Origin: a virus
Strand: one strand, 5' to 3'
Length of the DNA stretch: 64,000 nucleotides
IMG/VR virus record: IMGVR_UViG_3300045988_179014
Location: 1-64,000 of that record
Shown: piece after piece, positions 8,088 through 38,417 of the stretch
How the letters are laid out: each line of letters starts with the position of its first letter
Position numbering within the stretch: position 1 is the stretch's first letter
Translations under genes and position numbers: made by a program
The notes under the pieces: model-generated
Told to the model about the DNA's origin: nothing
Databases searched by the model: none
The model's input: only the letters and a program-made list of their open reading frames with translations

Positions 8088-8130
8088 CCTCAATGGTGAA
8101 GTTGAATCAACAGTGATGCTTGTTGCGTAT

Positions 8131-11705: not shown

Positions 11706-11728
11706 ATTTGGATAGATTGAACTATCTC

Positions 11729-11808: not shown

Positions 11809-11837
11809 ATATATTTTTGATAGATTGAACTATCTCG

Positions 11838-15583: not shown

Positions 15584-15677
15584 ATGTATTCCCTAAATGC
15601 GAAAACGCCCTATGGCTGGGCATTGTTGACAATTCATTGTTCAAATAGTACCAGAACTTGACTGCCAGAACAACGCG

Positions 15678-16154
15678 TCAACTATCAGACAGTCTCAATC
15701 TAGTCACCACATCCCAATCCACTAGCTCCACAAAATTAATGGATGGAAGATGGACCCTAGAGGATTGAGAATGCCTCTTGGCGATTCTACGTATCCACTT
15801 TCGGAACCAGTTGGACGGAGTTGTCATCACACACATGTCATCAGACCCAATCCAACGTAGAGTCAGAAATCCGGTCAAGAAAATGCTAATCAAATCATAT
15901 GACGAATTGATTTTGCGATATGGAATTCTCGATAGGAATATTGAGCCTGACTTCTTTGCCAACTCTAATTGGTACCAACTCGAAGAAAACCTCGGGTTTG
16001 TAAAGTACCAGCACAAATCTATATTGTATTTAGGTATTTGGATAGTGCCTTCTATCCCATCATAGAACGACGCGTCAAACACCATGCAATTTTTTATTAC
16101 ACGTGGCAGCCAATTTCTGCCATGTGTTAATAAATCAGGCATAAAGACACTCAT
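15678..16154 (-). CDS. Paralog family member 3
   Basis: C-terminus ...LPSINFVELVDWDVVTRLRLSDS. Internal YDLISIFLTGFLTLRWIG; N-terminal WLPRVIKN...YDGIEGTIQI. Confidence 0.6.
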   Translation of the reverse strand: MSVFMPDLLTHGRNWLPRVIKNCMVFDASFYDGIEGTIQIPKYNIDLCWYFTNPRFSSSWYQLELAKKSGSIFLSRIPYRKINSSYDLISIFLTGFLTLRWIGSDDMCVMTTPSNWFRKWIRRIAKRHSQSSRVHLPSINFVELVDWDVVTRLRLSDS

Positions 16155-16803
16155 CTTGAGCCAGAAAACCCCAATTCAACAACTCGCTGAAATGAATCTC
16201 GGGCAAATAACTTCGAACTGACATTTGATTATAGGCATTTTTGGGCCTAGAGGAGGTAACCGGCCTCCACTCATACTTCTCTGAGTCGTTCCATGACAAC
16301 TCATAGTGAATCAATGCATCCTGAAGGTAACCTGGAGTTACAAACTTACTTGACGGGATGTCCTCCAGCATGAGCCAGCAAGTCAGAAAAACCCAAATAA
16401 CATCATTTACATTGATGATTGGTCTGTAGTCAATTTTTGCGAATGACACAGTATCCTTACCAAATCGAATTTGCAAACCATGAGACTGTCGGGTTTCTAC
16501 AGAGCTGAGGTACAACAACCACTCAAAATGAAGTCCATTATGTTCCAATGTTCCAGTTATGCCAGACGCCTGAACATGGGAAACCGTCAGTCCCCGAATG
16601 AATTTTGGCAGTATTGAGATGAGTCGCTTGCTCATGTCCTGTCCATCCCGGTCAACGAGCATCTCAGTCATGGTTTCCCTTTCGCTGGTAATCATGAATA
16701 CATCATATACCACCCAATCCATGAAATCAACATGGACGTACACAAGTTCACAAGAAGAATCATAGACTGGATTCACACCAAGCTGCATTCTTGATTTGTA
16801 CAA
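16135..16803 (-). CDS. Paralog family member 4 (most divergent, longer N-terminus)
   Basis: C-terminus ...LPEIHFSELLNWGFLAQDECLYA. Internal VNDVIWVFLTCWLMLEDIP. Confidence 0.5.
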   Translation of the reverse strand: MYKSRMQLGVNPVYDSSCELVYVHVDFMDWVVYDVFMITSERETMTEMLVDRDGQDMSKRLISILPKFIRGLTVSHVQASGITGTLEHNGLHFEWLLYLSSVETRQSHGLQIRFGKDTVSFAKIDYRPIINVNDVIWVFLTCWLMLEDIPSSKFVTPGYLQDALIHYELSWNDSEKYEWRPVTSSRPKNAYNQMSVRSYLPEIHFSELLNWGFLAQDECLYA

Positions 16804-17422
16804 ACTTCCACATGTTTAAATGGCTAAATAGAGTATAAGGTCATTCCAAAACCGACTCAACCCAATCGAACTTGTTGTCATTACGAAACTAAAGATTAAT
16901 CTGATTGAACTTGTATTCCCAATATTGATGCTATCTCACTAATAGTCCATTATGGTTCGTTCGTGTTTTATGGATGGAATACACATACAACAAAGCCATC
17001 AACACTTTTTGTCGTCCCCCTTCATATCCAAAAACATACACCCCAAATAATCAAGACATCTTAAACAAACCCATTTCACACAATCAACAGACGCCCCAAA
17101 CCCCTCACCTCGTAATCTGTCGTCAAAGATTTTCAACCACCAACAACACTAATGGGATTACTTGCACACCTATGATTGACCAAGCAACTTCTATCAGGTG
17201 TAGTATTATTTCCAGCTCAACTATCATATAACGCAAGTATCTCATCAAATCAAAGAGTGCTCATACTCACAATTGATGAAAAACACTCCATTCTGAGTAG
17301 CAATTCTAAAAATCACACAATATACCAGTCCATCAACCCTAATCAAACATAGGAGGGATTCAAATTGATTTTCATGAACGTGTTGTATACAATTTGATTG
17401 ATTTATAGCTTGGAAGGATTGT

Positions 17423-17854
17423 ATGTTGAATACTGTCGTGCTGGAAGAAGGGTGCGAACTTCTATCCAAAACCATTCCCAGTTGTGGTGTGACTTACATG
17501 AACCGTCAGAACAGTTTGAGTGGAGAATTTGCAACACGTTCACACCATGGCATGTGGAAACTAATGCTCACCAACAATCCAGAATATAGTTACAAACTAG
17601 TTGCTTGGGTTGATAACACATCTGGGAACTTTCATACTTCCATCCAGCCCCATGTTCTGAAAACCGGAAATGACTTAATCATGGTTTTCCTCAGTGGATG
17701 GCTCAACCTGAAACCACATGCACACTCTTCACTTACTGTACCACCCCCACCAATCAATTTTGTGGAACTGGTGGATTGGGAAGCTGTGATTGAACTGGGA
17801 TTGGGAAAATACATGGAAACAACCGATTCCCCGTATAATAACACAGATGACTGA
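17423..17854 (+). CDS. Paralog family member 5
   Basis: C-terminus ...PPPPINFVELVDWEAVIELGLGK. Internal NDLIMVFLSGWLNLKP. Confidence 0.6.
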   Translation: MLNTVVLEEGCELLSKTIPSCGVTYMNRQNSLSGEFATRSHHGMWKLMLTNNPEYSYKLVAWVDNTSGNFHTSIQPHVLKTGNDLIMVFLSGWLNLKPHAHSSLTVPPPPINFVELVDWEAVIELGLGKYMETTDSPYNNTDD

Positions 17855-17928
17855 ATTCCTAACATCCAATTCCAAAAATTGCTACTATAATCGAATCAAC
17901 TCATTACAACTGAGAAACAGAGAGACCA

Positions 17929-18456
17929 ATGAACAACTTGTCAATTTATGAGCCTTTTGCTATCAGTGAAGGCAAAACAGTGTTGACAAAAGTGGTACCA
18001 AATGTTTTAACCGTTCTCGTGGCTCATCAAAGTTTCTGGGGTGGAACGTTGGAAATCCCGTCCTGTCCAGTCTTTCGTTGGGAATTCTGTCCAAATACAG
18101 AAACCTCCCAAGGTCGTTACTTTTTACGAATGATTTTAAATGAAACAATTTGGTTCAATACCCAAATCATTGATTACTCCATTAACACCATCAACGATTT
18201 TATCACACGATTCCTTGGGTGCTGGTTAACCCTTTCATGGACAGGGGGAGCCAATGAAATCACATGGCACGGATTGGTGAGGAGACGCGACAGTGTTCAT
18301 ACATCCGAAAAATCATGGGCACGACAAATCGGCGTATGTCTTGGTGGGAAACAAGTACGAGGGAAAATACGACCATCCAAGTTATGCACCCATTACTATC
18401 CATCCATTAATTTTGTGGAGCTAGTGGATTGGGATGTAGTTGCCAAATTGAAGTAG
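17929..18456 (+). CDS. Paralog family member 6
   Basis: C-terminus ...YYPSINFVELVDWDVVAKLK. Internal INDFITRFLGCWLTLSWTG. Confidence 0.6.
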   Translation: MNNLSIYEPFAISEGKTVLTKVVPNVLTVLVAHQSFWGGTLEIPSCPVFRWEFCPNTETSQGRYFLRMILNETIWFNTQIIDYSINTINDFITRFLGCWLTLSWTGGANEITWHGLVRRRDSVHTSEKSWARQIGVCLGGKQVRGKIRPSKLCTHYYPSINFVELVDWDVVAKLK

Positions 18457-18551
18457 AGGAACCAAACCCGAAATCGTTAATGTTTGGTTGTAAAATTTTT
18501 AACGTTCCGTTCGCCACTTCTAATTCTCTTGGGGTCATAATTTTGCAATGA

Positions 18552-18629
18552 GGGTTATTCACAGCCTTCCTCAAGTGCGCCCTGACTAGGTATTTTACTG
18601 GCCGCCACGCCGTCTGTGAATAAGCCTCA
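18552..18629 (+). repeat. About 80-nt hairpin element, copy 1 (10-bp stem ttattcacag/ctgtgaataa, conserved loop motifs cctcaagtg and gactag)
   Basis: Stem ttattcacag (18556-18565) pairs with ctgtgaataa (18614-18623). Homologous second copy at 19993-20070. Confidence 0.5.
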
Positions 18630-19992
18630 ATACTCCTACACGAGAAAATAAATGGCTTTCACAAACAAATCTCTAAACCAGCAAAATAAATCCATGTAAC
18701 TGGGTTCTCACAAAATTTGTCGTCGTCCCCTTTTACAAGCCACACAACAAGACGGAACAAACACCAGCAAGACAGTATGACCGTTTGTTGATGTATTGAA
18801 CCAGAGCACAAACATTACGAACAATAATCATTTGACCAATACATGAAATCACTAGCAAATGACGACAAACTGTGTTGCCATGTAAGTGCAAAATGCTTCT
18901 GTCACCATCCATGCTGAAAACAGATGATTTAATCGTATTACACTTCCTGTCGTTTCAATACATTCTTAGTACATTGGACAAACTAGCCAAATATATGTAT
19001 GCCACAATCTTGGACGAAACCCAGTATAAGTAATTCACGCATATTGACAGGTTCATTGTTCAACAATCATGACACAAACATATCCCCAAAACACAGCCAA
19101 ATTACACAGTAATCAAATCAGCCATTCAACTGTCACCCCACTCCAGAGACAACAGATGAAACAGCAGCAAACAAAAAACATCATTGGTGGTAGCACTTTC
19201 AGTCCAGTTCATTGATTCACACTAAACACACCAAAAAATGTTTGTTCATGCTCAACTAACAACCGAATATACCATACACAAAAGGTGATGAGAAGAAATT
19301 CAAGGAATCAATCAAAACGGGCATGTTCACTTCGCCCATAACTCATGAACAACAACATCTGTAGTCTCACTAGACGCCCTCAATCGGCTGTAAATCCCCT
19401 TAACAACGCCAACAGCAAAGGGGTTTAAGGGTGTGGTCATCCCAAGCTCTCAGAAACCATTCTATGGCGAATCACAGCATACTCTGTCCAAACCAAGTCA
19501 AAAGTTAAGCAAACAAATAAACAAATTACAAAACCCAATCAAATCAGTCATCAACAGGAACAAACACAAGAACTGCCCCCACCGGTTATGTTCGATGTTG
19601 GAAATCACGAAATAGACCCAATTCGATTGCCAATACCCGGAAACAATCAAGCCCAAATAATTACAATAGCACCTCTACAAAGAAGTACCAGGAGAACCAA
19701 AACCAATCTTTTGAATCTCTTGACGGGAATCCAAACAAAAACCCTAATGAAGAACCCTATCTGAAAACCAATTAACCACTCTCAACTGTTTCCAGACTGA
19801 ACCATCACATTATGAGACCGGCCAAGAGAGCTAATACGCCAACCCAACCCGAAATCAAAGTGCCTCAATTCAAAATTCACACATGTCAGTCAATACAACA
19901 TCTCTTTCGTCGTCCCTAGGTAGGTTAAAATATCTTCTTCTTGAAACAACGAATACACAATTGATTACAGGAAGAACATTAATTGTACCTAT

Positions 19993-20070
19993 GTGGCTTA
20001 TTCATAACTCCCCCTCAAGTGTGTAGGTTGACTAGAAGCCGCTTGAAATGCCGCCTGTGAATAAGCCTCC
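19993..20070 (+). repeat. About 80-nt hairpin element, copy 2
   Basis: Stem ggcttattca (19995-20004) pairs with tgaataagcc (20058-20067). The loop carries ctcaagtg...gactag...gccgc...gccgcctgtgaataagcctc, as in copy 1. Confidence 0.5.
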
Positions 20071-23000
20071 ATGATTCGCTACATTGTTTTCCTTCCAGAT
20101 TCAAAACAAGAATTCAAACAAGTAACTATCGTCCCAACCAGTTCATTGGATTGTTGTTGTATTTACCTGTACTCCATTCATTGAAGACCTCAAATCTTGA
20201 CTCACCCAGTCTCCAAATCATGTGACAACATTTGTATCAGCTTTAGCATTACCCCCTTTAGTATTACCCATCCACTTATGTAGCGAAGGTAAATTCGGCA
20301 AATACAATAGGTAAAACCACAAGTTTTCTGCTACAAATGTCAACACAGTACTTGTAGCGAGAAAACAATGAGTTCATGATTAAGCAAGATTCTACCGCAC
20401 GTTTTTAGATAACAGGAGAATTGTTCACTTTTGTAGCGAAGAACCAATTGAAATAAGATAGAGGGGTATTTTGAAACGGGAATAAAGCCCATAACTCTAA
20501 CTCACTTCATTCAACCACAACACAAACTGAACAGGGGGTAAACCTCTCTTGAAACAAAAACCAAATCAGCATGTTACATGTAATGAGACCCTGAACCCAG
20601 ACATCTCTTACAACACCATAATAGTCAAATGTTCCAGTCCCATAAAAACATCAATCATCTCATTCATATATATTCTCAGCTTTTTGAGACTTTTTCAAAC
20701 TGCTCCACTCCACAGAAGCTCAACACACAAGCCATCAAGTTCTAAACACATGCTTTAACCCTGTTGTCAATCGTCGTCCCCAGTTGTTCGAAAACTATCA
20801 ATCATACACACTTGCCCCAAAGTCAAAACAGGCATCAAAAATACTGCAAATGCGCCCTCGTCAACATCCGCCAACCCAAACAATCAAAAACACAACCCAC
20901 TGCACCCCAATAAACCCCATCCATTCAAAACCAAACAACAATAAACAAAAATACAACATGACAGCAACTTCACTACTGTCACAGAACCAACTACTAATCA
21001 AACAACTTCTCTTGTCGTCACTTCATTCAACAACAAGCCCAAATTCGAATAAAGACATCAACGCAGCAGCCAAATTCAACCAACACGCTCGTCACAATTC
21101 CAAAAACCAAACAGTAACCATCTCTCCCACTGAATCCAACAACATGCTGACAATCAACAAGAAACACACTACTCCACGCACCTACCAAACTGCATTACCT
21201 GATTCAAACAGTATGTCATCATTGAAACACTCTTCCTCGTAACACAACCCCCTTCACACATCAAGCAAACACCATTTTTACAATTAAATGGGATTCAGCC
21301 GCCGTTCAACCAAAATCAATACATCAAATCAACATTCACCAACCAGCATGCAACATGTACAAAGCAAACACTCAAATCATTGTTGATGCTATTGACAAAA
21401 TCTAAGCAATGCAATTCAACGAAAACGATACAACAGCAATTGCAACACCCTCAACAACATGTAATACTCGCACACGCTTAGAGCAAAAACAAACAATTGG
21501 TACAGGACAAACAGACTTCTCGCTATGAAACAATCGAAACAGATTCCATCAACCTTGTAGAATTGCAGAACTCCTTCATTCAGGGAGGTGCAATCATGAG
21601 AACACCATCACAGTCCCCCCCCACCACCAAGACCGCAAATCAAGCAAAGATTCAGTACCAAACTGTATACAACCGCTCCTATCAATGCACTTCTGCACTA
21701 ATAAGCTCAGGAATCACTGTTGAACAAGTTGAATAGTATGGACACACCACTGGATTGTGTGCATTGTATTCAACAATTGGAACACTCGCCTACATTGATG
21801 AAATACAGCACACATCATATTATGAAAAAACACATTCCACAACACTTGATACATGACAAATAACACACACCTGAAAACAACAAGCAATCATCAACACTGT
21901 TCATACAGCGGTCACGCCATTGTTCACACTAGTCATTGAAAATCAAATTCAACAAAACGGCAAATCAACACCCCACTATCTCGCCAGTATTCATAACAGG
22001 TCAACAACTGTATCCAACCCATAAAGCAATGAAAACAAGCCCACTTCACCAAACATCAACTACCTGAACCTGCATCAGCGAGAAACAGTTCCATCAGTTT
22101 TGTCGTCCCCTCCCACTCCACAACCAATCCTACTTCATGATAAGCCAATAACGTTTATACATCCCCCATGAAACAAACACCAAAAACACACATACGGTTT
22201 CACATCACGTGTTTCAGAAAACCACAAAGATTCACCAACACACAAAACACCAACAGTTCAAGAAACCCCAACCTCGAATCCAGAACCCAGACAATCAAGA
22301 CTTGGATTCACAACATGCTCCCATATATACCTTGTATGGGGGTAAACTCAACCCTTCATCCAATACCCAAACCCATCCCGCCAGCAATTTAAAGCAACAA
22401 CAAAAACAAACTACACAAACAGACATCACAATGGGTATATGAACAAATTATGCTTTGATGAAAAGACATACTTGAACTGTATTCACAGTATCCAAAACAT
22501 TATTTCAGAATTGAACCATGTGAACAGTAGACAATACAAAACCACACTGACAAAAACTCCAACAAGTGCACAGTTCACATTCACGGTAATCGCGCCCAAC
22601 TGAAGAAACCAATAATCCAGCTTACACAGCAACTATAGACATTACCAGCCAAATCCAAAGCACCACAAAGATTCTATTGCTCAAGACATGCAAAAACAAA
22701 CCCAAGGAAATCAGCATCTACCCAAAGCACGCCCACTGTCAACACTTGCATGCACATCAAGACACAAACACCTGGAACCAATCAACAAAATCCCCAAGCA
22801 TCCAACTAGCCCCAAAACGATGCAACCTAATACAAACTTTTCATATTTCGTCGTCCCCGAGCAAGCAGTGAACACAAACCGCAATGAAACACCACATCTC
22901 AACAAACAAGGACGTAAAAACAAAAGAGGCAACAGTTGGCCACGAATCATTTGCGCTCATCAACAACACAAACAATCTATCATGGAATCAATACCAACTG

Positions 23001-26000
23001 TATCCATTCATGCCACCACATACTGACAATTTGAATCATGGTCAAACTACGTACTCTTTACACTCCACAATAATTCATTACCATGGCATGATTACAGCTC
23101 AATGGAAGCATCTTTCCCCAACTTGATTTGTTCACACTTGGTTCTGAATCATGAACTGTTGGTGAGTGTTCGTTTTTGTTTCACAGTTGTATGAAATGTT
23201 CGCAAGTTTGAGTGGGAGCAAGAAATACAGGGAAAGATTTGAAACATGGGGCCATTGTGCTCTGATGTGTGTTTTGTTGTTGTCAGTACTGAATGTCAAC
23301 ATGACCAAAGTTGTATGGTTGTGAGAATTCAATAACTGGTTTTGTGCATGTGCAGTAGAAGCTGCATGTTTTCGTGATTGTGTTTGCGGTTTTTGTATGC
23401 AATTGCCAATGAATGTAAGTGTAAAACATCAATCCTGTGGTCAATAGGGACAAATCATTTGCTGGAAAGTATCAAATGGTCATGAGTGCTTGCAGAATGA
23501 GCGTGTTTAGTGTGTGATGGCAGCATTTTTGTCAACAAGTGTATGTATTGATTTATTCTGATGGTTTATAGTTTTTGACAGGTTGGTGGGAAACTTTGGG
23601 AACAGAATGTTTTTCAAACCATGGTAATGCAGTGTAAACAAACCCACACTATAATCTAAGATTCACATCAACAGTTATCCGTCGTCCCCAGTACGGCTAC
23701 ACTTTTTGGCTATTGAAGACAGCATTTCAGTTTACAACGAAAGCAAACCAGTCAAACACATTGAAAAATCAAGAACCACAAAACCCAAACTCTTGCATCA
23801 AACACCTATAACAAATCACCAACATTCTGCCCTCACACATCCCAGCAATCAATACACCAACTCATGTATTGCGTGTTGCATCCAAAAACAAAACCAGAAA
23901 CAGCAACAAGAGAACTGTATCTCATTGTTGACATCACAGACTCAACAGGAGCACTATTTGTTACCCCCACTTTTCATACATCTGAACACGGCCCGAAATC
24001 ATAGCACTGTAATTCTCTCACACCCACCAATACCTCATTCTTACAGCACCACAACTCACACCCTGTTCTGGGCAAACACTCGTTGACCCTACACCCCCAA
24101 CCGTGCTACAAAACCCAAAATGTAAACAAAACCAGCAAAGAAACCCAATAAACCATCCCCAAAAAGAAACACTCTCAAAACCTCACCCAAACACGCAAAT
24201 ACACAAACACATGAAACACAACAACCCATACTCCCCAATAAGCAATCTCCGTAGAAACATACAAACCACTACCTATACCGAACCAAGCACATCTCAATCC
24301 AGACACAACACAACCAAATACTTCAATGAACCACAATTTCACAAACCATTCCCCCACAAACCGAATCGAGAAAAAACAATAAACAAGCAATCATATGAAC
24401 AGACTGATTAATACCAGGCAATGGACAACAAACGAAGACTGACAGCAATTCAAAATCTTCTATCGTCCCCCATTCAAACAGAAAATCTTCTCTACCACTG
24501 AAAACTATGTCCAATCATGTTTTTGAAACACCACAAAACCACGAACCGGACTCATACAGTTTCATCCAAGCCCCTTGAAGATGCATAACTCAAAGAAAGT
24601 GATAAACAACACATTGTGTTCATACACTGTCGTAATCGAACTTGTCACATAACACCAAAAGCACACGCGTTTTTTACAGAACCAACAATTTCAAACATAC
24701 TCCATCATATGTTTTCAATTTGGACAAGTAATCGCTGCTATGAAAAACATGTAATCAACCTTTAACACTTGAACCACATAACACGTAATTAGATTAACAG
24801 GGTTCAGCAAAATTCGCAGGTTCAACAGCCGCCAACCCCAGTTCACACAATGTTTCAATGATTCATCAACTATACATAAAGAAGATGTGCATATAACCAC
24901 ACAATACACAACGCCCATTTGCAATCACAATCATGGACACACTATGAACCGAACACACCTGACTACTGCACACACTTACTCTGTATCAACTCATGCCATG
25001 ACCATCACCACCAAAACCATGTGAATCATATATACGTTGACTGCAAACAAATCATTACCACAACATTTAACTTTGGTCACAACTTGATTAACGTCTTATC
25101 TCGCCCCAACTCACACCATTGCGACTTAAAACACTGACATCTCCCAACGTGCTGAGAATCCCACAAATGCACATAACATCAACCTGTAATGCCAACATGT
25201 GCAGATAGACAAACTCCCACCACCTACAAACATGCTCCTCAGAAAGAATGATTTGTCAACATCTGTGCACCATCAAAACCAAACATGTTCACCCAATCAA
25301 TTTCGTTTGTGACAGTTGACTTCCTCATAAACTTTAATACTCAAAATTCAAAGAAGATTTTTGCATCCCATTAGCACTAGACAAAACACTCTCATCAGTT
25401 TCATCATCACTCAGCAAACCACCCAACAAAACCGCAAAACCATCAACACCCACATCCCACACATAGTCCATTGACAATCAATAACATGAGCAGAAACCCA
25501 AAACCCAACTCAACCAATACCATCCCCCTCAAAACCGTCGTCGTCCCCAAGCAAAACAAACCAAACACCCAACCAGTAAGCTTTTCCAGACAGCAAAAAC
25601 ACAACCCACAACAATAACCAACATCAGAACCAAACCATTGAAACATGCTATACATCATTAGTTCATGTACATTCATAGTTTCCAACTACTTACAACAATC
25701 TTTGTCAACAGTCATAATCATGATGAGGGCAGCACATAGTCAACTAAATCTTTTCAAAAACAAGTTGATTCAAATTGATTACAAAACCCCATAATCTTTG
25801 GCGACCCCTCAAAACCAAAACCCAATACTACAAAACCCAGAAACAACAAAGTCAAAATATAGCAAATTCAACCGTTTACAAAGCAGGAGGGAATATTTTC
25901 AGCACAGACAAGACATTCAACAGGGTAACGTGTATTGTCAAGAGGCATATAGGTCGGGTTGTTGAAACTGTAGACGATGAATACAATATGCAAACATAGA

Positions 26001-26982
26001 ACATATAGGTTTTGCCGGTTTGTGCATGACCATTGAAAATTCACAGTGAGTTTGAAGATGTTGACATCTGGTTTCAGGTTTGTGGGCTCTGTAAAGGTTG
26101 AATGACTCATGGTTTTCATTACAAAGTCCACATATCTTTTTCATTGGTTGTGTTTTTGTGTGAAGCAAAGATTGGATGAACTTTGTTTGAGGAAAGATTA
26201 TTCAAACTGGTGAGACCGTGTTTGCTCGTTCAAACTGATAGAGTTATGTTTGTTCAATAAGTGATTTTTGCCATTTGAGATAGTTGATGTTCCTCAATTG
26301 CTGCGGTTGATGTTTGAGATACGGTTTCACTTCTATCATATTAGCGCTCATTGGGTGGTATCAAATTATCAAAACCCGATACGACAACACACAATTCTGT
26401 ACAACATGCAAACAGTCTCAACATTCACATCACACAAATCCACAAAACACACAAGCTTTCGTCGTCCCCATACTATAAAGACCACAAACAACTAACACTC
26501 CCATATGCATTTGAACCCACCCAACACAAGCGACCAAAAACACAAACAAACTCCACAAGAACAAAAACCAATTCTCTGACATCCCCAACCATGCTCTCAG
26601 TCACTTAGAACCAAGCACCCATGCTATTTGTCAACAAAGTAGTACCCAACAACACAAACAAAAATCACCATTCAACTCGAACCCCACACAGCATCTCCCC
26701 CCATCATGACCAAAACACAGTTCATACATACTCAACCAAACACAAAACAATGCCAAACCACACTCACACGTTTTTACAAAGTATTCCCACACACTAACCC
26801 ACAAACCAAAGAAACCAAACACTAATTCAACAACCAACACCATTAGAACCATAACAAGAAACAACAACCATTGAACACAAAAACCAACCCCACACCCAGT
26901 CACCAACCAAACACAGAAACAACAACAGAGTCATGTTTCCATATTTGTCAGCCATAAGTAAAAGACAGCAACCCAATGTATC

Positions 26983-27004
26983 CATGTTCATATGTCAACA
27001 CTGG
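26983..27004 (+). repeat. 22-mer catgttcatatgtcaacactgg (copy 1) followed by ttgttgtgtgaaat
   Basis: Exact repeat of the 22-mer at 29567-29588; the minus strand reads ccagTGTTGACAtatgaacatg (contains TTGACA). Confidence 0.45.
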
Positions 27005-29566
27005 TATTTGTTGTGTGAAATGCGTTCAACTCGCAACTTGACACGATTGAACACATGTACAGCAAAGCAGTGTTCATCAATAAGGTCAAAGTCTACCAAT
27101 GATAAGATTCCAGAACACTACATTGACCACCCAATTCCCAAACACTGTCTACATGTTGGTTGTATCCAGTACAATCCCTGATTAGCCTCAACAACATGTT
27201 TGCTTTCAGTTCAAGTATGATGCTCGCTTCTATCAGTAGGAAGATAAGACAACACTAACATCCCCATACATCACCCAACAGAAACACATTCAAACAAGAA
27301 AACCATAGACCCATTTCTGACAACACAATCAGCCACTCATTGGATGAAACTGCTCGTATCAGATTAAAGCGCATAGAGGTCACACTACTAACATTCACAG
27401 CCTCATCCATCACATTGACACATTCTCGCATCCAAAACAGCTGAAACACAAGAATACTATCCAATCACCAAACCCATAAAATGTTACAAAACCTCTCCAC
27501 AACGATTCACAAAAACATTCCCGTAGAAACCTTGTTCACATCAACACCAGAACAATAACAAACACCAATACAGAAGGATTGCAAAGAAAACACAAGAAAG
27601 CGACAAACCAACAAACATCCTCCCCATAACCATGTAACTGTTTCACACCATTATTTCACTTGCAGCCCAAATACCGACTGAACACAAATTTACACAGCTC
27701 AATTTCATCTACCGCCACTTTCACCAATTGGAAATCCAGCTCATCATAACCCATTCCCACCAACTACTTATCTCACTCATCATGTAACACCAGTTGACCT
27801 AATATATTCATTATGGCCCTACACAGTTCAAGGAATAATGTTTTCTGTTGTATGGGTGTTTAATAGTATTACGACTGTTGTCTTTCGTTCTTTTTGTTCA
27901 TTGGTTGCCTGAACAGTACAACTACTTGTCAACAATAGAACAAATGCTACAAAGGTTGAAAATCATAGATGTGTTATTTATAGGGGGCACATAGGTTTTC
28001 CTGTACTTGTTGAAAATATTTTCGTATGTTCTATGGTAGTAGTCATGGAACCTGGTTCATCAAGCGACAGGAACAAGGTATTGATTACATGTCCACACAA
28101 ACCATAATTTCACACAGACGGATAAACAAACAACAAAACAAATACACCCCTGTAACAAATCGTTGTCAGAAGCCATGGCAGTTATCAACAACCCATACTA
28201 AAACAGTAAACAGAGACAACCTTCATTGCACAGAATATTACAGTTGGCAACGTTTTGAATCCACATCACCATGCACTACTCTCTTTGCATGTTTTGAAAT
28301 CAACCAGCAATCTGAACAAACACAGAATCACCATACTGGCACACATTGATGAAAGAGTATCAACTGAGCCAAAAACATTACCTCACAACCATCAACCGTT
28401 TTCCATCTATTGACAGAATCCCAACCACTCAAAATTCTTCAACACCACAATTGCCCACGACATTGACAGTAGTAGACATCAACCAACAATAAACAGCGGT
28501 ACTCAACAATCAATCACATACAACACAAACACGAAACGAATTCATATCCTTCAAATATGCCTCAACCAGACTCTTCCACAATAGTTGGGAAACTAACTGT
28601 TACACATTATGTCATCATGCTGTAGTTCTCTCACCAGTTTGTTTTTCACATCCCTGTTTGGCATCCTATTCAAAAATACATTCAAGGTTAAACTCTGCAA
28701 CAACAATGTATTACAAGAGAGACATCCGTTTTATTACCCGTTTACTCATCCATGTGAAATTGTGTTTTTGTTAACATTTAGTCAGTACCATGTTCGTGTT
28801 GTTTGGCGGACTAGGTTTGGTAATTACTGTCGTAAGATGTGCAAAGATGTTTTCAGCCAATGTCGGAAACTCATTCAACCCACTATGAATAAACACCTGC
28901 GATTTTGAATTTTTGAGCCCCTGTTCTACCGTCGACGAGTTACCGTACTTTTTGGGTAATCAATGAATGAAAACGAAAGAAGAGGCAACAGTTGCAATGC
29001 TGTAAATCACTGAGATAGCGGAAAACATTTATTTGTCAAACTCCATAGACCCCCAATGGGAATGGTCACTCAGTATTACATGATGAAGAATTGACGGAAT
29101 AGACTATGATGACAAGTTTGACTGTTAATAAGCGAAAACAGCAACAGAGACAACCAAACCCGTATTAATTGGTATCCATCCAGTACTTGAAACACAAGCA
29201 AAGTAAAGACGCAAAACAACCACAGGAAGAACATTCATTGATTCTTTGCTATCCTGTGTTTCTCTGCAATCTCCTGCACCAATTTTTTACTGTTGCGATG
29301 CTGATGCAAACAGAACTCTACAAAGATGGCTCATAAATTGTTGTGAGAAAAGGTTACAACATTTCATGGGCTCAAACGATTGATGTTACACTCTCATGTT
29401 TTCAGCTGCTTCTGATGCAAAAATATACCAATGCGGCAAATGAAACACCGAAAGCAAACGACGCAACCACCACTCACCTTAATCCAATACAAACAGTTTC
29501 CTCCAACAGGCTACTTGATTATGTTGTCAGAAACAGGTCACAGTCTTCCTGTTCAAATACTGTGTT

Positions 29567-29588
29567 CATGTTCATATGTCAACACTGG
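29567..29588 (+). repeat. 22-mer catgttcatatgtcaacactgg (copy 2) followed by gttgttgtgtaata
   Basis: Exact match to 26983-27004. Confidence 0.45.
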
Positions 29589-30354
29589 GGGCGGCAGTCG
29601 GGCTGGTTTATAATCTTGAGTGGGTTGTTGTGTAATAGAGTTGTTGAGTGTAATCAGAGGTGTTGAATGCAGTTGTTATATTTCCGGGTTTGTTTTCATT
29701 GTGTAAAAACTGTAATCTGATGTGTTCATGCCGATGGATGACTAGAACACTGTATTACCAAAATCATCTTTCCCAATGAAGATTGAACAAAAACACAGTG
29801 AACAACTGACTATCATGTTTGGGCCGTTTAATTATGTATAGCGCAGCAGTTTTCGTTGACAGTGTTCATTATCAGAAATGAACCGCCACAATGCCACATT
29901 GACCATCCAGCACCAAAACACTATTAACACGACATCATCACCTCTGTGCCTGGTTCGCATGCAATCACGATGAACACATTACTGTTATGTTTGAGAACCG
30001 GTAATTATGCATGCTTGATGATTGAACACCAGAATCAACTGTGTTCATTCTTGTATTCGTGGTATCAATAATGTTTCAAGCCAGAATTCATTCATGTAAA
30101 CAATGAGCATATACACCAACTGGGGAAACAACACGCAAGCCACGAACAAAACCAAAAACACAAAATTACCAACCCAACCTCTCTTGACAACACAATGGAA
30201 ACAACAATCAACAAATAAACACAACTGAAAACATTGAACAAAAAAGAAAAAGAGGGACCAAACACACATCCGCACAATTCAACCCCACTCAACAACTCGT
30301 TCCCCACAACTCACACCCCAACCACCTGCCAACACTTCCCCCACCTTCCACCAT

Positions 30355-30393
30355 TTGTAAACACTTGCCCCCATTGTAAACACTTGTAAACAA
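30355..30393 (+). repeat. 3x direct repeat TTGTAAACA(CTTG) at the compositional-polarity switch point
   Basis: ttgtaaacacttg at 30355-30367 and 30374-30386, and ttgtaaaca at 30385-30393. + strand A/C-rich polarity ends and G/T-rich polarity begins at about 30400-30420. Confidence 0.6.
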
Positions 30394-30704
30394 TACTCGC
30401 ACAGCTCGTTCACTGTTTGTTCCAATCATCGGTGGCTGTTTTTACTGCTGCCGTTTTGTGCTTCTTCTGTCTTCGGGCTTGACCCCATCGTTTCGCTCCC
30501 GCCTTCTTCTCTCCCTACGGTCGGTCATCGGCGTCCGCTTCACTGTGGTTCCTGCACCCAACTTTGTTGCTTTCATTGGTTGCTGTTGTTGGCTGCTTGT
30601 GTTGATTGTTTTCAATTGTGTTGGTGCTGTGTGTTGTTGTATTGGTTTTTACTGCTTGGTTGTGTGTTGTTCTTGTTTTGTACATATGTTTGTTGTGTTG
30701 TTCT

Positions 30705-31036
30705 GCGCACACTTGTTTTCGTTTGTTGTTTGGTTGTTGGGTGGTTTTTCTTTCCTTTGTCGCTCTCTTCTATACTGTGTAGCGCACACTTCTGTTTCCC
30801 CATGTTTCATTTCTTCTATCATGTGTATTGTTGTTTGCTTGTTTCCATTTGTTGTCAATCATGTGCGCATACTTCTTTTCATCATATTGTGTTGGCTATT
30901 ATGTGTAGTATTGGTTGTGGCGATTGGATTGTTTTTGTTCATCATCACTACTGTTGACATTCTGTTTCCGTTTGTGTGTTGTGTACATGTGTTGGCGGTT
31001 GTTTTCGTCCTGCTTCCATGGTGGTGCGCACACTTT
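30705..31036 (+). repeat. Four phased iteron-like repeats GCGCA(C/T)ACTT (core palindrome GTGCGCAC)
   Basis: gcgcacacttg at 30705, gcgcacacttc at 30782, gcgcatacttc at 30865 and gcgcacacttt at 31026. Spacing is 77, 83 and 161 bp (about 80-bp phasing). Confidence 0.55.
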
Positions 31037-31164
31037 CTTGTATTCATTTTTGTGTTGGTGTGGCAGGTTTGTTGTGGAATCAGTTTGGGTGCTTTTGTTT
31101 TCATTTTGGTTGCTCGGGTCGGATTCCGCGGCTTCGGTTTTTGCGGCGATTTCCGTGGTAGCGT

Positions 31165-31310
31165 ATTCTTGAGATAATTTACATATGAACTATTTTCACA
31201 GATATAAAATGTGATTTCTTCAAAATTTGATATTTTTTTGTAACCATTTTGGGGCATTTTTATGTGTGTATTTTAGTACACTTGATTGCATTTTTGAGCA
31301 TTTTGTGTGC
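31165..31310. promoter_or_regulatory. AT-rich tract (candidate DNA-unwinding element / promoter region) upstream of the rep-relaxation gene
   Basis: gagataatttacatatgaactattttcacagatataaaatgtgatttcttcaaaatttgatatttttttgtaaccattttgg... Locally much more AT-rich than the flanks. TTGACA at 31326-31331 and GGAGG RBS at 31343-31347 precede the GTG start at 31357. Confidence 0.4.
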
Positions 31311-31356: not shown

Positions 31357-33357
31357 GTGGAGTTCAAACGATTGGATTTCGGGGTTGGGTCGGTTTCTGG
31401 GACTGATGGGACCGAGAATACGGTTGATGCATATGTTGACAATGTGTCTGAAGATGATGCGCACATGTCTGATTCGGCGGATTCTGCTGTTTTGCCTCAT
31501 TTTCGTCGTTTGGTTTTACCAGGTATGGGGGATTCCAACGGTTCTAATGATTCCAATAATTCTGAGGATGGTTCTGTTGTGAATGATTGTTCTGTGAATG
31601 GTTCATTTGCTGCTGAGTTGGTGGATGAAGATTTTGGCAGTGATTCTTCTGATGCTTCTAATGTTGATGGGGTTGGACATGATTCGTTGGTGAGTGATTC
31701 TGGAAACAGTGTTAACAGTGGTGTTTATGTTAATACTGGTTTGGGTGATGGTGCTGCAAATGTGGTTGGCGGTTCGTTTTCTGAGGTTGGGGGTGTTTCT
31801 TCGGGCGAGGTTTTACACAGTGTGGACAATGTTGTGGATAAGTCTGTGGATAATGTGGTGACGGGTTCGTTGGGGTCTTGTGCTGGTTCTGGTGTGCGGG
31901 ATTCTTTGTTGGGGGATGATGTTTCTGTGACATGTCAGACTTCAGGTGCCGTCATGAGGGGTGAAGAAAATGCTGTGGGTTCGGTGGTGGATTCAGGACA
32001 TGATGCTTCTTTTGGGATATCTTCTGCTGTTGAGAATACCTACGATGATGTCAATGATGGGGATGTGGGCGTTGATGGTTTTGGGGTTTTGTTGGGTGGT
32101 TTGTTGAGTGATGACGAAACTGATGAGAGTGTTTCGGTTGTTGTTGATGGTGCTGGGCGGGAGCGTGTTGGTGAGGGTGCTCCGGGGGTTGGGGTGCACC
32201 GGAATGAGTCTGTTGGCGGACGTGAGAAGACTGAGGTTGTTCGTGGTGCGGTGAGGATGAATGTGCGGGAGTTGGGGTTTTTCCGTAATTTGTCTTCAAC
32301 CAAGAGTGGTGTTTTGAATGATGAGTCGTTGGTTCGTGCGTTACGTGGACCGGTTTCGGGTAAGGAATCTGCTGGGGAACGTCGTGAGCGTTTGCGTTTG
32401 CACGGTCAAGGGTTGCGGGGTCGGCGAGTGTTTGAGCGGGGGTCTCGGTTGAGGTTCAGTGGACGTGACCGTGAGGTGTTGCGGTTTCTGGCAATGTTCC
32501 GGTATGCAACGGATTCTCAGTTGTCTCGTATGTTCTCTGTTGTTCCTCGTACCATGCTGAACCGTTTACTGAAGCTGCGGAAACAGGGTTTGGTTATTGA
32601 CCGTAAAATGTATGGTGCTCGTCCTATTTGGTTTTTGACTGAGGCTGGGTTGTTGTTGTCTGGTTTGGATTTGCCTCGGGTGACTGAATCCAAGTTGACT
32701 TTTTCCATGTTTCCACATCAGTTCACTGTTAATCATGTGGCTGCTAATTTGTGGGGGGCGAATGTGAACGTGTTGGGGTTGAAGGATTTTCCGGCAAAGA
32801 ATCGGGTTGATGGTCAGGGTGTTGTAACGTTTGGCGAGGAGCTTGTTTCAGAGTTGGAGATTCAGTCTTCATTCGGAAAGATTAAAATGTTCGACAAAGC
32901 TGAGGTGTATCGCCCTGGTTTGTTGAAGTCTATTGCGAATGAGTTTCAGGTGTGGGAGGAGTCTGGTGGGGTTTCGTTTGGGCCTTCTCCGGAAATGGTT
33001 TTGGGTAATGAGTACATGTGGGCTTTGATGCCTCCTACTATTGTCGGGTTGGCATATCATGTGCCGGATTTGGTTGTGAAACGTGAACGTGCTGCTGATG
33101 GGTCGCCTCGTAGTATTGCTGTTGAAGTGGAAATCAACAACAAACCTACACACAATTATGAGAAAACTTTGCGTGCTTATCGTGATGATATGAGATTGTA
33201 TGAGAAGGTTGTGTGGGTGTGTAAAAACATTGGTCCTGCTCGGAAACTTGAAAACATTGCCAAGGAGATTGGTTTGTGGCAGGAGGGGCGGATTGAGATT
33301 TTGCCTATTGTTACTGCGGATGGTGTTTTCAAGGAGAGGGATTTGTGGACAATTTGA
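31357..33357 (+). CDS. Replication-relaxation family protein (putative replication initiator / relaxase accessory) with about 330-aa acidic disordered N-terminal extension
   Basis: The C-terminal half starts with the wHTH pattern typical of the Replic_Relax (PF13814) family: VLRFLAMFRYATDSQLSRMFSVVPRTMLNRLLKLRKQGLVIDR, followed by FPHQFTVNHVAANLW. The N-terminal 330 aa are Asp/Ser/Val/Gly-rich low complexity, yet the frame stays open despite a stop-prone composition. GTG start with GGAGG RBS. Confidence 0.55.
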   Translation: MEFKRLDFGVGSVSGTDGTENTVDAYVDNVSEDDAHMSDSADSAVLPHFRRLVLPGMGDSNGSNDSNNSEDGSVVNDCSVNGSFAAELVDEDFGSDSSDASNVDGVGHDSLVSDSGNSVNSGVYVNTGLGDGAANVVGGSFSEVGGVSSGEVLHSVDNVVDKSVDNVVTGSLGSCAGSGVRDSLLGDDVSVTCQTSGAVMRGEENAVGSVVDSGHDASFGISSAVENTYDDVNDGDVGVDGFGVLLGGLLSDDETDESVSVVVDGAGRERVGEGAPGVGVHRNESVGGREKTEVVRGAVRMNVRELGFFRNLSSTKSGVLNDESLVRALRGPVSGKESAGERRERLRLHGQGLRGRRVFERGSRLRFSGRDREVLRFLAMFRYATDSQLSRMFSVVPRTMLNRLLKLRKQGLVIDRKMYGARPIWFLTEAGLLLSGLDLPRVTESKLTFSMFPHQFTVNHVAANLWGANVNVLGLKDFPAKNRVDGQGVVTFGEELVSELEIQSSFGKIKMFDKAEVYRPGLLKSIANEFQVWEESGGVSFGPSPEMVLGNEYMWALMPPTIVGLAYHVPDLVVKRERAADGSPRSIAVEVEINNKPTHNYEKTLRAYRDDMRLYEKVVWVCKNIGPARKLENIAKEIGLWQEGRIEILPIVTADGVFKERDLWTI

Positions 33358-33389
33358 GCAAGTTTTCAAAGAGTTGGAGGATGTTGTCC

Positions 33390-35072
33390 ATGTTGGGTTC
33401 TGATGTGAGTAATCCTTTGTTGGATGATGAGGATGAAGTTTATCCAGTTGTTGAAAATCCTGTTGTTGAGCGGTCTGGAATGTCACAGCGGGGTTCATCA
33501 ACTCGTGGTGGGGAATCCATTGTTGAGGAGCATTTACCAAAAGAGGATTCGTTTTTTGGTTATGGGGCTTTTTCTGGTTCGGGTGTTTCCTCTGCTGTAA
33601 TTGATGCGAATGATAACACGTTTGATGATGTGGCACGTTTTGAACAGGATTTTCCGGATGGCCATGGGAACTGGGTGGAATCTGTTCATAGGATGGATAA
33701 ATCTTTTGATGATGTGTCTGATACTGTTGTAGCGGGATTTGATTCTTCTTCTACTGACGATTTCGTTGACAGTGTTGGTGTTTCTGATGGGTTGTCAAGC
33801 GATGATGCTGAACCATTGTCTTTTGGTGGGGATTCGTTGGAGGATTTGTTGGGTCCGGTTGATGGGTCTGATGATGTTGCTGCGTCGGAGGATTTGTATG
33901 ACAGTATGGATTCCATTTTAGCGGCTGCTGATGGGGCTTTGAATGAGGATGATTCCAGTTATTATGCTGTGACTGATGATGACGATGAGTTGGGTGGCTT
34001 GTCATTGGATGCAATTATTGGTCAGGCGATTGAGATGGAGGCGTCGGATATTCATCTTTCATCGGACGACATGGTTGCGTTCACTATTCTGGGGGAGATT
34101 CATCGGATACCGGATTGGGGGGTTTTGAATTCGGTTCAGGTTCAGCGAATTTATACGTCTATTGCATCGCACGTTTCTCAGGACGATTTTGCGAAAGATT
34201 TGGAGTTGGATACGTCATATGTTGTGAAGACTGGTAGGCATCGTGGGCGTCGTTTGCGTTTGTCGGTTGGTAGGTCTTTTCACAATGTTTTCATGGTTTT
34301 TCGTGTGATTGCTGATGTGATTCCGACGCCTCAGGAGTTGGGTGTTTCTGGGAGTTTGTTGGAGTGGTGTAATTTGCCTAATGGTTTGGTGATGATGAAT
34401 GGTCCGACTGGTACGGGTAAATCAACTACTTTGGCTTCGTTGTTGCGGCAGATTCAGTTGACTCGTCCTGCGAAGATTATCACGATTGAGAAACCTATTG
34501 AGTTTGTGTATGGCACTGATGGTAAGGCGTTGGTGACTCAGCGTGAGGTTGGTGGTCGTGATACTCGAACTTTTGCTGGGGCTTTGACTTCTGCGATGCG
34601 TCAGGCTCCGGATATCATCATGTTGGGTGAGGTTCGAAATCAGGTTGAGGTGAATGAGCTGTTGCGTGCTGCTGAGACTGGGCATTTGGCGATTTCCACG
34701 ATGCACACAAATTCGGCTCCTGCTACTGTGAACCGTATCAAGGGTTTGTATCAGGGGGATGACCAGATTCGTATTTTGGGGTCTTTGTCTGAGGTGGTTC
34801 GTGGTTTTGCGAATCAGGTTTTGTTGAAGACTCCTGATGGTAGTGGCAGGTTTGCGGTGCGCGAGGTCTTGGACGTTGATGAAACTGTGTCGCGTATGAT
34901 TCTGCGTGGGGATGTCGAGGGTATCAAAAACTATCAAATGTCCAATGGTATCACGATGGAACATGAGTTGGTGAAAGTTGTGTTGGATGGTCGTGCGAAT
35001 CGTGAGGAAGCCCGTAGAGCAACTTCGAATGTGGCTCGTTTTGACCATTTGTTGAAACAAGCTATGCAGTGA
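33390..35072 (+). CDS. PilT/PilB-family (type II/IV secretion) ATPase with about 230-aa acidic N-terminal extension
   Basis: Walker A GPTGTGKSTT, Asp box ITIEKPIEFVY...TQREVG, Walker B DIIMLGEVR, His box HLAISTMHTNSA. T2SSE N-domain-like segment EASDIHLSSDDMVAFTILGEIHRIP. The ORF track starts at GTG 33345 (overlapping the upstream stop); ATG 33390 has GGAGG 9 nt upstream. Confidence 0.7.
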   Translation: MLGSDVSNPLLDDEDEVYPVVENPVVERSGMSQRGSSTRGGESIVEEHLPKEDSFFGYGAFSGSGVSSAVIDANDNTFDDVARFEQDFPDGHGNWVESVHRMDKSFDDVSDTVVAGFDSSSTDDFVDSVGVSDGLSSDDAEPLSFGGDSLEDLLGPVDGSDDVAASEDLYDSMDSILAAADGALNEDDSSYYAVTDDDDELGGLSLDAIIGQAIEMEASDIHLSSDDMVAFTILGEIHRIPDWGVLNSVQVQRIYTSIASHVSQDDFAKDLELDTSYVVKTGRHRGRRLRLSVGRSFHNVFMVFRVIADVIPTPQELGVSGSLLEWCNLPNGLVMMNGPTGTGKSTTLASLLRQIQLTRPAKIITIEKPIEFVYGTDGKALVTQREVGGRDTRTFAGALTSAMRQAPDIIMLGEVRNQVEVNELLRAAETGHLAISTMHTNSAPATVNRIKGLYQGDDQIRILGSLSEVVRGFANQVLLKTPDGSGRFAVREVLDVDETVSRMILRGDVEGIKNYQMSNGITMEHELVKVVLDGRANREEARRATSNVARFDHLLKQAMQ

Positions 35073-36043: not shown

Positions 36044-36080
36044 TTGTTGAATTCTAGTTGTTGAATTCTAGTTGTTGATT
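36044..36080 (+). repeat. Tandem repeat (ttgttgaattctag)x2.6
   Basis: 36044-36057 and 36058-36071 are identical 14-mers; a partial third copy ends at 36080. Inside the ORF-poor stretch 35.1-38.4 kb. Confidence 0.6.
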
Positions 36081-38394: not shown

Positions 38395-38417
38395 TGTATT
38401 ACTGTGGGGTCTTGAAC

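Follow-up and report, generated by a model that had tools for sequence, protein, structure and literature searches.

The stretch of DNA analysed here, referred to as the window, comprises 64,000 nt (positions 1-64,000 of the IMG/VR record IMGVR_UViG_3300045988_179014) and is a piece of a large mobile replicon of about 190 kb that is plasmid- or phage-like. Between positions 18460 and 30400 it contains some 12 kb of non-coding DNA rich in A and C on the plus strand. This region is probably the largely unconstrained left flank of an iteron-type vegetative origin, and its composition would result from strand-asymmetric mutation. Such an origin would comprise a sharp composition switch at 30400/30401, four iteron-like repeats, an AT-rich tract and, as initiator gene, an adjacent Replic_Relax-type gene. 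Strand-asymmetric mutation of the replication type, consistent with deamination of C to U and A to I on an exposed single-stranded DNA strand, would push weakly selected sites left of the switch to A.39, C.29, G.11 and T.21 and those on the right to the mirror image, and the essentially unconstrained DNA at 18.7-26.9 kb would rest at that equilibrium. Selected elements, an oriented 11-mer and an origin-proximal zone at 27-30.4 kb, would be embedded in the drifting DNA.

An initial annotation had described the region as non-coding, with open reading frames (ORFs) produced by chance and an origin-like switch next to it, and these parts are retained. It had also proposed a satellite-like array, a pseudogene graveyard, an array of RNA genes or a centromere-like segregation region as explanations. 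No unit homology, no gene relics and no structured RNA genes were found.

Coding status, divergence and composition of the 12-kb stretch

The two parts of the window that are considered in this section are as follows.

18460-30400, ORF-free non-coding stretch, A/C-rich on the plus strand, left flank of the skew switch
18700-26900, distal part of this stretch, apparently neutral A/C-rich DNA at mutational equilibrium

The overall composition of the stretch was A.364, C.258, G.139 and T.240. The roughly 40% A and 30% C given initially apply to its clean A/C segments (A.375-.397, C.27-.30) and are slightly too high for the region as a whole. Between 19 and 28 kb the GC skew ranged from -0.29 to -0.48 and the AT skew from +0.17 to +0.38. 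The longest stop-to-stop frame had 184 codons on the plus strand and 99 codons on the minus strand. Block-wise shuffles gave a mean longest frame of 126 codons on the plus strand (95th percentile 170, maximum 221) and of 106 codons on the minus strand; the ORF lengths thus fall within the chance expectation for this composition. No 3-nt periodicity was detected from 18.0 to 31.5 kb, with peak-to-median ratios of at most 2.8 as against 6-38 in the flanking genes.

The region was compared with a close relative, the 188,933-bp IMG/VR contig UViG_3300045988_187329, which is collinear with the window from 8.1 to 45 kb. Identity was about 98% in coding DNA, with proteins also about 98% identical, and 90-92% across the gene-free region, for which this contig is the only relative that can be aligned. 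An exact 20-mer from the skew switch, used to look for further close relatives, matched this contig alone. The two sequences differed in the region by 113 indels, of which 17 were multiples of three and 96 were frameshifting, about one frameshift per 120 nt. Five flanking genes (7.3 kb in total) had no gaps at all, and their changes fell mainly at third codon positions. Only 29 of the 125 ORFs of at least 35 aa were intact in the relative; none was longer than 79 aa and none had a synonymous bias. The 152-aa ORF at 20784-21242 was broken in the relative. The region is therefore confirmed as non-coding, and the pattern of indels makes this verdict independent of the genetic code.

It is accordingly extremely improbable that the region is hidden coding sequence, read by stop-codon reassignment or after heavy editing, or a product of wrongly joined, unrelated contigs. 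Huge phages are known to recode stop codons (PMC7162821), and with TAA as the only stop the minus strand contains frames of up to 469 codons, a length estimated to be within what such a composition can be expected to give. Six stop sets were tried, and none gave convincing stop-to-stop ORFs: the maxima of 285 codons (TGA=W), 217 codons (TAG=Q) and 232 codons (TAA reassigned) were scattered over both strands, and the flanking genes read normally in code 11. The density of frameshifting indels and the absence of periodicity both speak against any such reading. Mis-assembly is excluded by the collinearity of the independent IMG/VR contig through the whole region, both junctions and the switch. 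Both possibilities are effectively refuted.

Similarity searches with the region were negative as well. The concatenated minus strand fragments (2,913 aa) had no match in phage genomes or among 5.8 billion proteins; plus strand fragments were left out of this search, as the ORFs on that strand are of low complexity and not intact in the relative. A near-identity DNA search of the gene-free region against 50,697 phage records gave no match. Relatives at 62-71% identity do not share the sequence that is collinear in the close relative, and neither DNA nor protein similarity was found between 18.7-26.9 kb and the left arms of these relatives.

The distal part diverges at a near-neutral rate. Substitutions relative to the close relative amounted to 8.0% at 18.7-26.9 kb, and to 3.6-8.7% at the 4-fold degenerate sites of neighbouring genes. 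The rate drops toward the switch, to 5.2% at 26.9-30.1 kb and 3.6% at 30.1-31.36 kb. In the distal part 76% of the substitutions were transitions (transition/transversion ratio about 3.3), and opposite changes were about equally frequent (A->G 113 and G->A 90; T->C 116 and C->T 94), as is expected at compositional equilibrium. Transition dominance fits deamination of a transiently single-stranded strand.

The composition of 18.7-26.9 kb (A.39, C.29, G.11, T.21) was the same as that of the 4-fold sites of the genes at 1-10 kb, which on the plus strand have A.35-.45, C.20-.29, G.08-.13 and T.25-.31. The A/C richness thus looks like a mutational equilibrium and not like a designed feature. The initial annotation had treated it as a property of the region; it is instead a neutral equilibrium of the entire DNA left of the switch, common to 4-fold sites up to 30 kb away, and it becomes extreme at 18.7-26.9 kb because constraint on the sequence is nearly absent there.

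One possible history of this DNA, to which only tentative credence can be given, is that of decayed gene cassettes. The region would then be a former array of small leftward genes with upstream 11-mers, destroyed by the mutation load near the origin. The homologous arm of the relatives contains leftward genes of 100-270 aa at an ORF coverage of.38-.82, compared with.20 in the window; the 11-mers are spaced like cassettes (0.75-1.3 kb); and a six-member paralog family adjoins the region at 14.6-18.46 kb. In one relative, L002 (GCA_020054605.1, contig JAHZTR010000020.1, positions 1-8476), the left arm is an array of leftward paralogs, at least eight in number and about 200 aa each, which have the motifs VPEWA and FGLVTR and become increasingly Gly/Val-rich toward a switch at which the GC skew changes from -0.64 to +0.70. 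Real genes are here visibly pushed by the mutational bias. Such a history would have left no relics in the window: a profile of the paralog family found none in all six-frame fragments, the left-arm proteins of nine relatives had no tblastn match in the region, and the searches of phage genomes and 5.8 billion proteins were negative. The pseudogene graveyard of the initial annotation has lost its basis to that extent. No residual periodicity is seen either, the decay would have to be far older than the separation of the window from its close relative, and it would still have to be explained why the DNA persists. Very old decay is compatible with the absence of similarity, and a history of decayed cassettes is compatible with the preferred reading of an unconstrained origin flank.

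The skew switch and the putative origin

The elements from which the origin is predicted lie within 3 kb of each other.

30400-30401, sharp strand-composition switch (A+C 73% in 30301-30400; A 9% in 30401-30500)
30705-31040, plus strand, four co-oriented iteron-like repeats GCGCAYACTT starting at 30705, 30782, 30865 and 31026, 0.3-0.65 kb upstream of the gene at 31357
31170-31300, AT-rich tract immediately preceding the Rep-like gene, a candidate for the unwinding element and/or the promoter
31357-33357, plus strand, Replic_Relax-type (PF13814-related) gene for a protein of 666 aa, putative initiator

The polarity switch that had initially been placed at about 30400 is sharp, the change being complete within 100 nt. 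It is not peculiar to the window: in about 15 relatives (contigs of 26-727 kb, GC 32%-61%) a switch with the same sign flip lies upstream of the homologous gene, with skew amplitudes of ±0.2 to ±0.7. The strand that leads 5'->3' away from the switch has an excess of G+T, a direction that would fit replication-associated asymmetry at a bidirectional origin.

All four GCGCAYACTT positions are present in the close relative. Six other relatives have their own clusters of 5-9 direct repeats at the same place, so that clusters were found in all seven relatives checked. The repeats are lineage-specific, including GCGCACAC, CGCTGACGC or GTGTCACAC, and the clusters contain 4-9 co-oriented copies. Repeats that are conserved in position and specific to the lineage in sequence are a hallmark of iterons co-evolving with their initiator. 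Clusters of 8-10-nt repeats were seen in L013, L009, L027, L018, L017 and L035 at about 7.3-8.3 kb of each locus. Relative to the cluster the switch may be on one side or the other: L013 has its repeats on the A/C-rich side, the window on the G/T-rich side.

The 1.3-kb zone at 30.1-31.36 kb, with its 3.6% substitutions, is better conserved than neutral DNA, and positions 31066-31232 are 100% identical to the close relative. In the gene at 31357-33357 the divergence from the close relative is dominated by third codon positions, and its synteny is kept in the relatives; the C-terminal half of the protein had 95 homologues, two of which are annotated as PF13814. The switch, the repeats, the AT-rich tract and the gene together are read by us as an iteron-type origin, with the switch as the presumed oriV and the gene product as the presumed initiator.

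Three tandem DnaA-box-like 9-mers with a spacing of 12 nt (two perfect TTATCCACA, one near-perfect) are located at 31821-31853 on the minus strand and include the only perfect boxes in the 64 kb. The cluster lies in the N-terminal low-complexity part of the Rep-like ORF, is kept in the close relative and is absent from all more distant relatives. Being inside an ORF and lineage-specific, it carries little weight as evidence for an origin.

Right of 30.4 kb the composition is mirrored, the 4-fold sites of the plus strand genes at 31.4-35 kb having T.55, G.31, A.08 and C.06. At the 4-fold sites of the minus strand genes at 38-44 kb the plus strand is still G/T-rich, with a GC skew of +0.49 falling to +0.29, and in L002 the skew declines smoothly across a change of gene orientation. 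The skew is therefore positional and is not set by the transcribed strand or by selection on amino acids. Purely transcription-coupled asymmetry is contradicted by the same two observations. Two further sources were rejected by reasoning: exposure of single strands by resection at double-strand breaks predicts the opposite polarity, and one-way exposure of a conjugative T-strand predicts no change of sign at the switch. On the right the skew decays to about zero within 13-27 kb (zero by 43-58 kb), and on the left it extends over 30 kb or more, to the start of the window.

The 11-mer array and other elements of the stretch

The initial annotation had noted an oriented motif array inside the gene-free region. 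The array is real, with 15 copies on one strand, and it extends well beyond that region.

540-26469, plus strand, array of the 11-mer (T)TCGTCGTCCCC, which reads GGGGACGACGA on the leftward strand; copies start at 540, 3806, 6572, 7109, 13273, 14441, 17009, 18720, 19907, 20771, 22100, 22848, 23679, 25538 and 26459, and a degenerate copy lies at about 24462

The window contained 15 matches to TCGTCGTCCCC with at most one mismatch, all on the plus strand, where 0.32 were expected. The spacing was 0.75-3 kb over 26 kb, and in the gene-free part a copy occurred about every kb (0.75-1.3 kb). No copies were found from 26.5 to 64 kb, nor in the 9 kb beyond the right end of the window that could be followed in the relative. 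The 8.5 kb beyond the left end contained one copy only, about 6 kb out and on the opposite strand. Conserved flanks did not extend beyond about 12 nt. All eight exact cores in the gene-free DNA were unchanged in the close relative while their flanks varied; 64 core bases were thus unchanged where about 5 changes would be expected (estimated P about 0.003). Unchanged cores amid drifting flanks indicate that the 11-mer is under selection. The 11-mer is most likely a promoter, a regulatory site or a polar recognition site for a leftward process.

The copies do not delimit repeated units. Nine motif-delimited units of about 1 kb were compared by pairwise local alignments, both in ACGT and in purine/pyrimidine space, which undoes transitions, and shared no similarity above that of shuffles. 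Self-comparison of the region by blastn gave only two inverted pairs and no tandem units, and tblastx of the region against the window gave sum-statistics noise apart from the two inverted pairs. A satellite-like tandem array, one of the explanations offered initially, finds no support in these results.

It is unlikely that the copies head about nine leftward transcription units, each beginning with GGGGACGACGA and producing a G/U-rich non-coding RNA of about 0.75-1.3 kb, or, as a variant included in that judgement, that there is one long origin-proximal transcript forming R-loops or primers, whose function would lie in transcription or composition so that the DNA looks neutral. The conservation of the motif amid drifting flanks would suit such units. 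In L013, a relative at 62% identity and the only one beyond the close relative that has the 11-mer, three plus strand copies are each situated 141-167 nt upstream of a leftward ORF, and the window copy at 17009 precedes the leftward gene that starts at 16803 by 206 nt. The same arm has minus strand RNA genes, GOLLD and tRNAs, and divergence is somewhat lower 150-450 nt downstream of the motifs on the minus strand. A G-rich non-template strand favours R-loops, as in ColE1, mitochondria and class-switch regions. The RNA searches speak against transcription units of this kind. Rfam with permissive filters (E<=1) gave no matches from 18.0 to 38.5 kb; at the gathering threshold, as at E<=1, only GOLLD and tRNAs were recovered, outside the region. 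Fold z-scores of the two best-conserved blocks on both strands were -0.63, +0.19, +1.24 and -1.40, so that the folds are no more stable than those of shuffles, and an array of known or structured RNA genes is not supported. Neither sigma-70-like promoters (31, with 37 expected from shuffles) nor intrinsic terminators (7, with 12 expected) were enriched. The bulk of the region evolves at the 4-fold rate with dense indels, and its sequence is lost in the relatives at 62-71%.

A role of the 11-mers as a DNA-handling signal is very unlikely; translocase guides resembling FtsK-orienting polar sequences (KOPS), SpoIIIE recognition sequences (SRS) or TraB recognition sequences (TRS), Chi-like sites, T5-like nick sites and a dispersed centromere-like array were considered. 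Several traits would fit. The orientation is strictly single over 26 kb, with GGGGACGACGA on the strand that is G/T-rich and leads away from the switch, and the motif is short (about 11 nt) with unconserved flanks, like a protein recognition site. Among the proteins encoded by the element are one of the FtsK/SpoIIIE family, a ParA/TadZ-like ATPase and two T2SSE ATPases. Copies in mirror-image orientation to the right of the switch, which KOPS or Chi would lead one to expect, are nevertheless missing, the array is local (about 26 kb) and not genome-wide within the 83 kb examined, and L013 alone among the more distant relatives has the motif. Such a signal would also leave the 12 kb of drifting DNA between the copies unaccounted for. 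The comparison with a KOPS/Chi-type polar motif holds in part: over-representation and orientation fit, while mirrored copies and a replicon-wide spread are lacking. The dispersal in a single orientation also differs from the compact form of a parS cluster. The only ParA-like gene (40801-42201) belongs to a Tad/type IV secretion system-like cluster, and no ParB was reported by the Pfam scans of 30 ORFs, the only search made for it.

Several observations weigh against an unconstrained origin flank shaped by strand-asymmetric mutation. The retention of 12 kb of unconstrained DNA in a mobile element is unexplained. Conserved 11-mers that lack an ORF behind them are not readily reconciled with pure junk, with the caveat that their conservation is seen in a single pairwise comparison. 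With a single close relative, at about 8% neutral divergence, tolerated junk looks the same as a selected spacer or a transcribed function that is insensitive to sequence. There are no DnaA boxes at the switch itself. To account for the unequal extent of the skew, an asymmetric terminus, a short right replichore or something similar would have to be assumed in addition. Finally, the skew at the 4-fold sites of the co-oriented genes at 31.4-35 kb exceeds that of the non-coding DNA, from which it appears that transcription or another local process adds to the effect. A more far-reaching proposal, which we regard as distinctly doubtful, is that elements with this Replic_Relax-type gene have a localised mutator zone of mitochondrial strength at the origin, which would quickly diversify and destroy arrays of small genes or paralogs; the 12-kb tract would then be its maintained product and not passive junk, for example a transcribed R-loop- or primer-forming region or a buffer, with the oriented 11-mers as its marks.

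Five islands of opposite polarity had been reported initially, and their composition confirmed all of them.

23100-23650, G/T-rich island (A.265, C.134, G.252, T.348), four 1-nt indels relative to the close relative
25950-26350, opposite-polarity island (A.259, C.135, G.237, T.369)
27830-28080, opposite-polarity island, also the left arm of an old inverted duplication
28600-28900, weaker opposite-polarity island, T-rich (A.276, C.206, G.166, T.352)
29570-29720, opposite-polarity island (A.219, C.106, G.298, T.377)

The four 1-nt indels show that the first island is not coding. The islands are approximately mirror images of the local equilibrium composition. On account of this and of the island at 27.83-28.08 kb being the arm of an inverted duplication, they most plausibly go back to old inversions of local extent or to inverted duplications, and are not read as genes.

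The part of the region nearest to the switch differs from the distal part. At 26.9-30.1 kb the DNA is better conserved (5.2% substitutions) and of mixed polarity, and it contains the following features.

27276-29570, large imperfect palindrome of 2.3 kb, old, centred near 28430 (blastn and tblastx self-comparison; inverted repeat I4)
27390-27646, conserved block with 188 nt identical to the close relative (27413-27600), no significant RNA fold on either strand
29247-29569, conserved block with 220 nt identical to the close relative (29283-29502), no significant RNA fold on either strand

In the palindrome, 27276-27446 pairs with 29400-29570 and 27837-28166 with 28700-29029, the latter arms being 67% identical to each other's reverse complement. 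The 3.4-kb origin-proximal zone at 27-30.4 kb probably holds origin-control or regulatory elements. Like the 11-mer, the better-conserved blocks at 27-31.3 kb look functional.

Rearrangements and insertions were found as well, among them copies of an element resembling a miniature inverted-repeat transposable element (MITE).

18550-18628, MITE-like element of 79 nt with 15-nt terminal inverted repeats (CTGTGAATAAGCCTC), recent insertion, 82-nt indel relative to the close relative
19993-20069, second MITE-like copy
21183-21657, segment of 473 nt present in the window and absent from the close relative
25368-25458, minus strand, inverted 91-nt copy of 32060-32150 (Rep-like N-terminal low-complexity coding sequence), 88% complementary, 94.7% over 75 nt

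Two families of short repeats had been noted initially, one of which was identified as the 79-nt MITE-like element. A further copy occurs in L012 (3884-3962), at the window equivalent of about 36060; this copy, together with the absence of the 18550 copy from the close relative, suggests that the element is mobile. The inverted 91-nt copy lies 5 kb left of the switch. The 473-nt indel, the MITE-like element and the inverted copy are signs of ordinary DNA turnover.

The replicon and comparable systems

The gene neighbourhood supports the description as a large mobile element. The more distant relatives with the same gene order are contigs of 190-727 kb. A scan of genome contigs found only a 3.6-kb contig from a Tissierella metagenome-assembled genome and was uninformative on the host. 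Two further genes of the right arm were placed as follows.

33345-35072, plus strand, T2SSE ATPase gene (type II/IV secretion), Pfam T2SSE match
62207-63313, FtsK/SpoIIIE-family gene

An exact-protein look-up of the T2SSE protein at 33345-35072 gave no record. Right of 35 kb there are genes for an NAD-dependent ligase, the ParA/TadZ-like ATPase, an RcpC-like protein, AAA_10 (VirB4-like) and TcpE, as well as two T2SSF, a second T2SSE, RadA-like, GyrA, RecX and the FtsK/SpoIIIE-family gene. To the left of the region are a GOLLD RNA with tRNAs (10.8-11.9 kb, minus strand), an rIIB-like gene, a thioredoxin gene and an NAD synthase gene. The GOLLD RNA (10907-11273, minus strand, 175.9 bits, E 1e-47) is inside a cluster of four tRNA-like genes (10792-11919), only two of which, tRNA-Leu TAA and CAA, were supported by ARAGORN; the match at 10792-10896 is 105 nt long and may contain an intron or be degenerate.

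The paralogs at 14658-18456, which abut the gene-free region, encode six proteins of 143-222 aa (four on the minus and two on the plus strand) that have the C-terminal motif PSINFVELVDW in common and are without Pfam or PHROG match. The skew of their 4-fold sites is weaker than that of the surroundings, which suggests a recent arrival or an inversion. A second ORF-free stretch of 3.3 kb without 3-nt periodicity, in which Rfam finds nothing, is present at 35073-38417. It differed from the close relative by 0.9% substitutions, far below the 3.6-8.7% at the 4-fold sites of its neighbours, and from L012 by about 7%; this points either to constraint on a non-coding element or to recent recombination over the tract.

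In the Rep-like protein the N-terminal third (31357-32256) is of low complexity, rich in Gly, Val, Ser and Asp, and large in-frame indels make it vary among close relatives (45, 21 and 399 aligned gap positions). In several relatives (L005, L006, L012) the contigs stop 0-8 kb from the skew switch or in the low-complexity 5' part of the Rep-like gene, and assemblies may tend to break at this locus. The assemblies of L003 (13935-15779) and L002 (13760-15841) contain an identical Rep-like protein. In one of the two, eight tiny plus strand ORFs are called in place of the NAD-ligase gene, which may reflect a disrupted ligase or a difference in assembly or annotation.

If the preferred reading of an origin flank is correct, the compositional anomaly has an ordinary cause, namely neutral DNA at the mutational equilibrium of one replichore, and no exotic coding or satellite is needed. 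The region would then be an origin-flanking non-coding stretch with replication-type skew, unusual in size and amplitude, in a poorly characterised family of giant elements. A skew flip that is sharp, together with iterons specific to the lineage and a gene of the Replic_Relax type, may serve to mark the probable origin of poorly known elements of 190-727 kb. If a mutational hot zone close to the origin is real, localised mutagenesis specific to one strand could be studied there in a natural setting, as could the ways in which genes arise and are lost in mobile elements. The questions raised concern the strength and locality of the asymmetry, the retention of 12 kb of unconstrained DNA and the reader of the 11-mer.

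Polar motifs offer the closest comparison for the 11-mer. Like KOPS, SRS, Chi, the nick sites of T5 and phiKMV and phage promoters, it is a short G-rich oligomer over-represented on one strand, and it is co-oriented with the presumed movement of the fork or with transcription. It differs from them in having no mirrored copies across the origin, in its confinement to about 26 kb and in its unrelated sequence.

Inocles are giant circular plasmid-like elements of oral Streptococcus whose origin and terminus were predicted from GC skew (PMC12340149). Their marker InoC has an N-terminal Replic_Relax (PF13814) domain, an average length of 454 aa and more than 70% identity within the family (PMC12340149). 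They are the only described elements that we found to have both a Replic_Relax-domain marker and origins defined by GC skew. They share with the window a single conserved PF13814 marker and VirB4-type transfer genes, for which the window has AAA_10/VirB4-like, TcpE, T2SSE and T2SSF. The window protein, compared with InoC by description only, is larger (666 aa) and has the domain in its C-terminal half, which suggests that the element belongs to a different lineage. Its GC content is 41%, compared with 24-32% in Inocles, and IMG/VR files the close relative as viral. A gene-free, skew-saturated flank is not mentioned in the passages of the Inocle paper that were searched (PMC12340149).

The arrangement at the switch resembles the origins of iteron plasmids such as R6K, RK2, P1 and F. 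Here, too, co-oriented repeats and an AT-rich tract lie upstream of a putative initiator gene, the sequence of the repeats varies with the lineage while their position is kept, and the composition switches at the site. An asymmetric terminus like that of R6K would fit the short right-hand skew domain. In contrast to these plasmids, the putative initiator is of the Replic_Relax type (PF13814-related) and not RepA, Pi or TrfA, no conserved DnaA-box cluster is present at the switch, the replicon is 190-727 kb in size, and the skew (GC skew up to ±0.7) is far stronger than expected. To our knowledge, a 12-kb gene-free flank is not a feature of iteron plasmid origins.

The composition itself has its counterparts in the leading/lagging skew of bacteria and in the heavy/light strand gradient of vertebrate mitochondria. 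In these systems, as in the window, there is an excess of G+T away from the origin and a flip at the origin, and the asymmetry is strongest at 4-fold and non-coding sites and dominated by transitions, as deamination predicts. Compared with bacterial skew, the magnitude in the window is mitochondrion-like, and the effect is partly local, decaying over 13-27 kb on the right.

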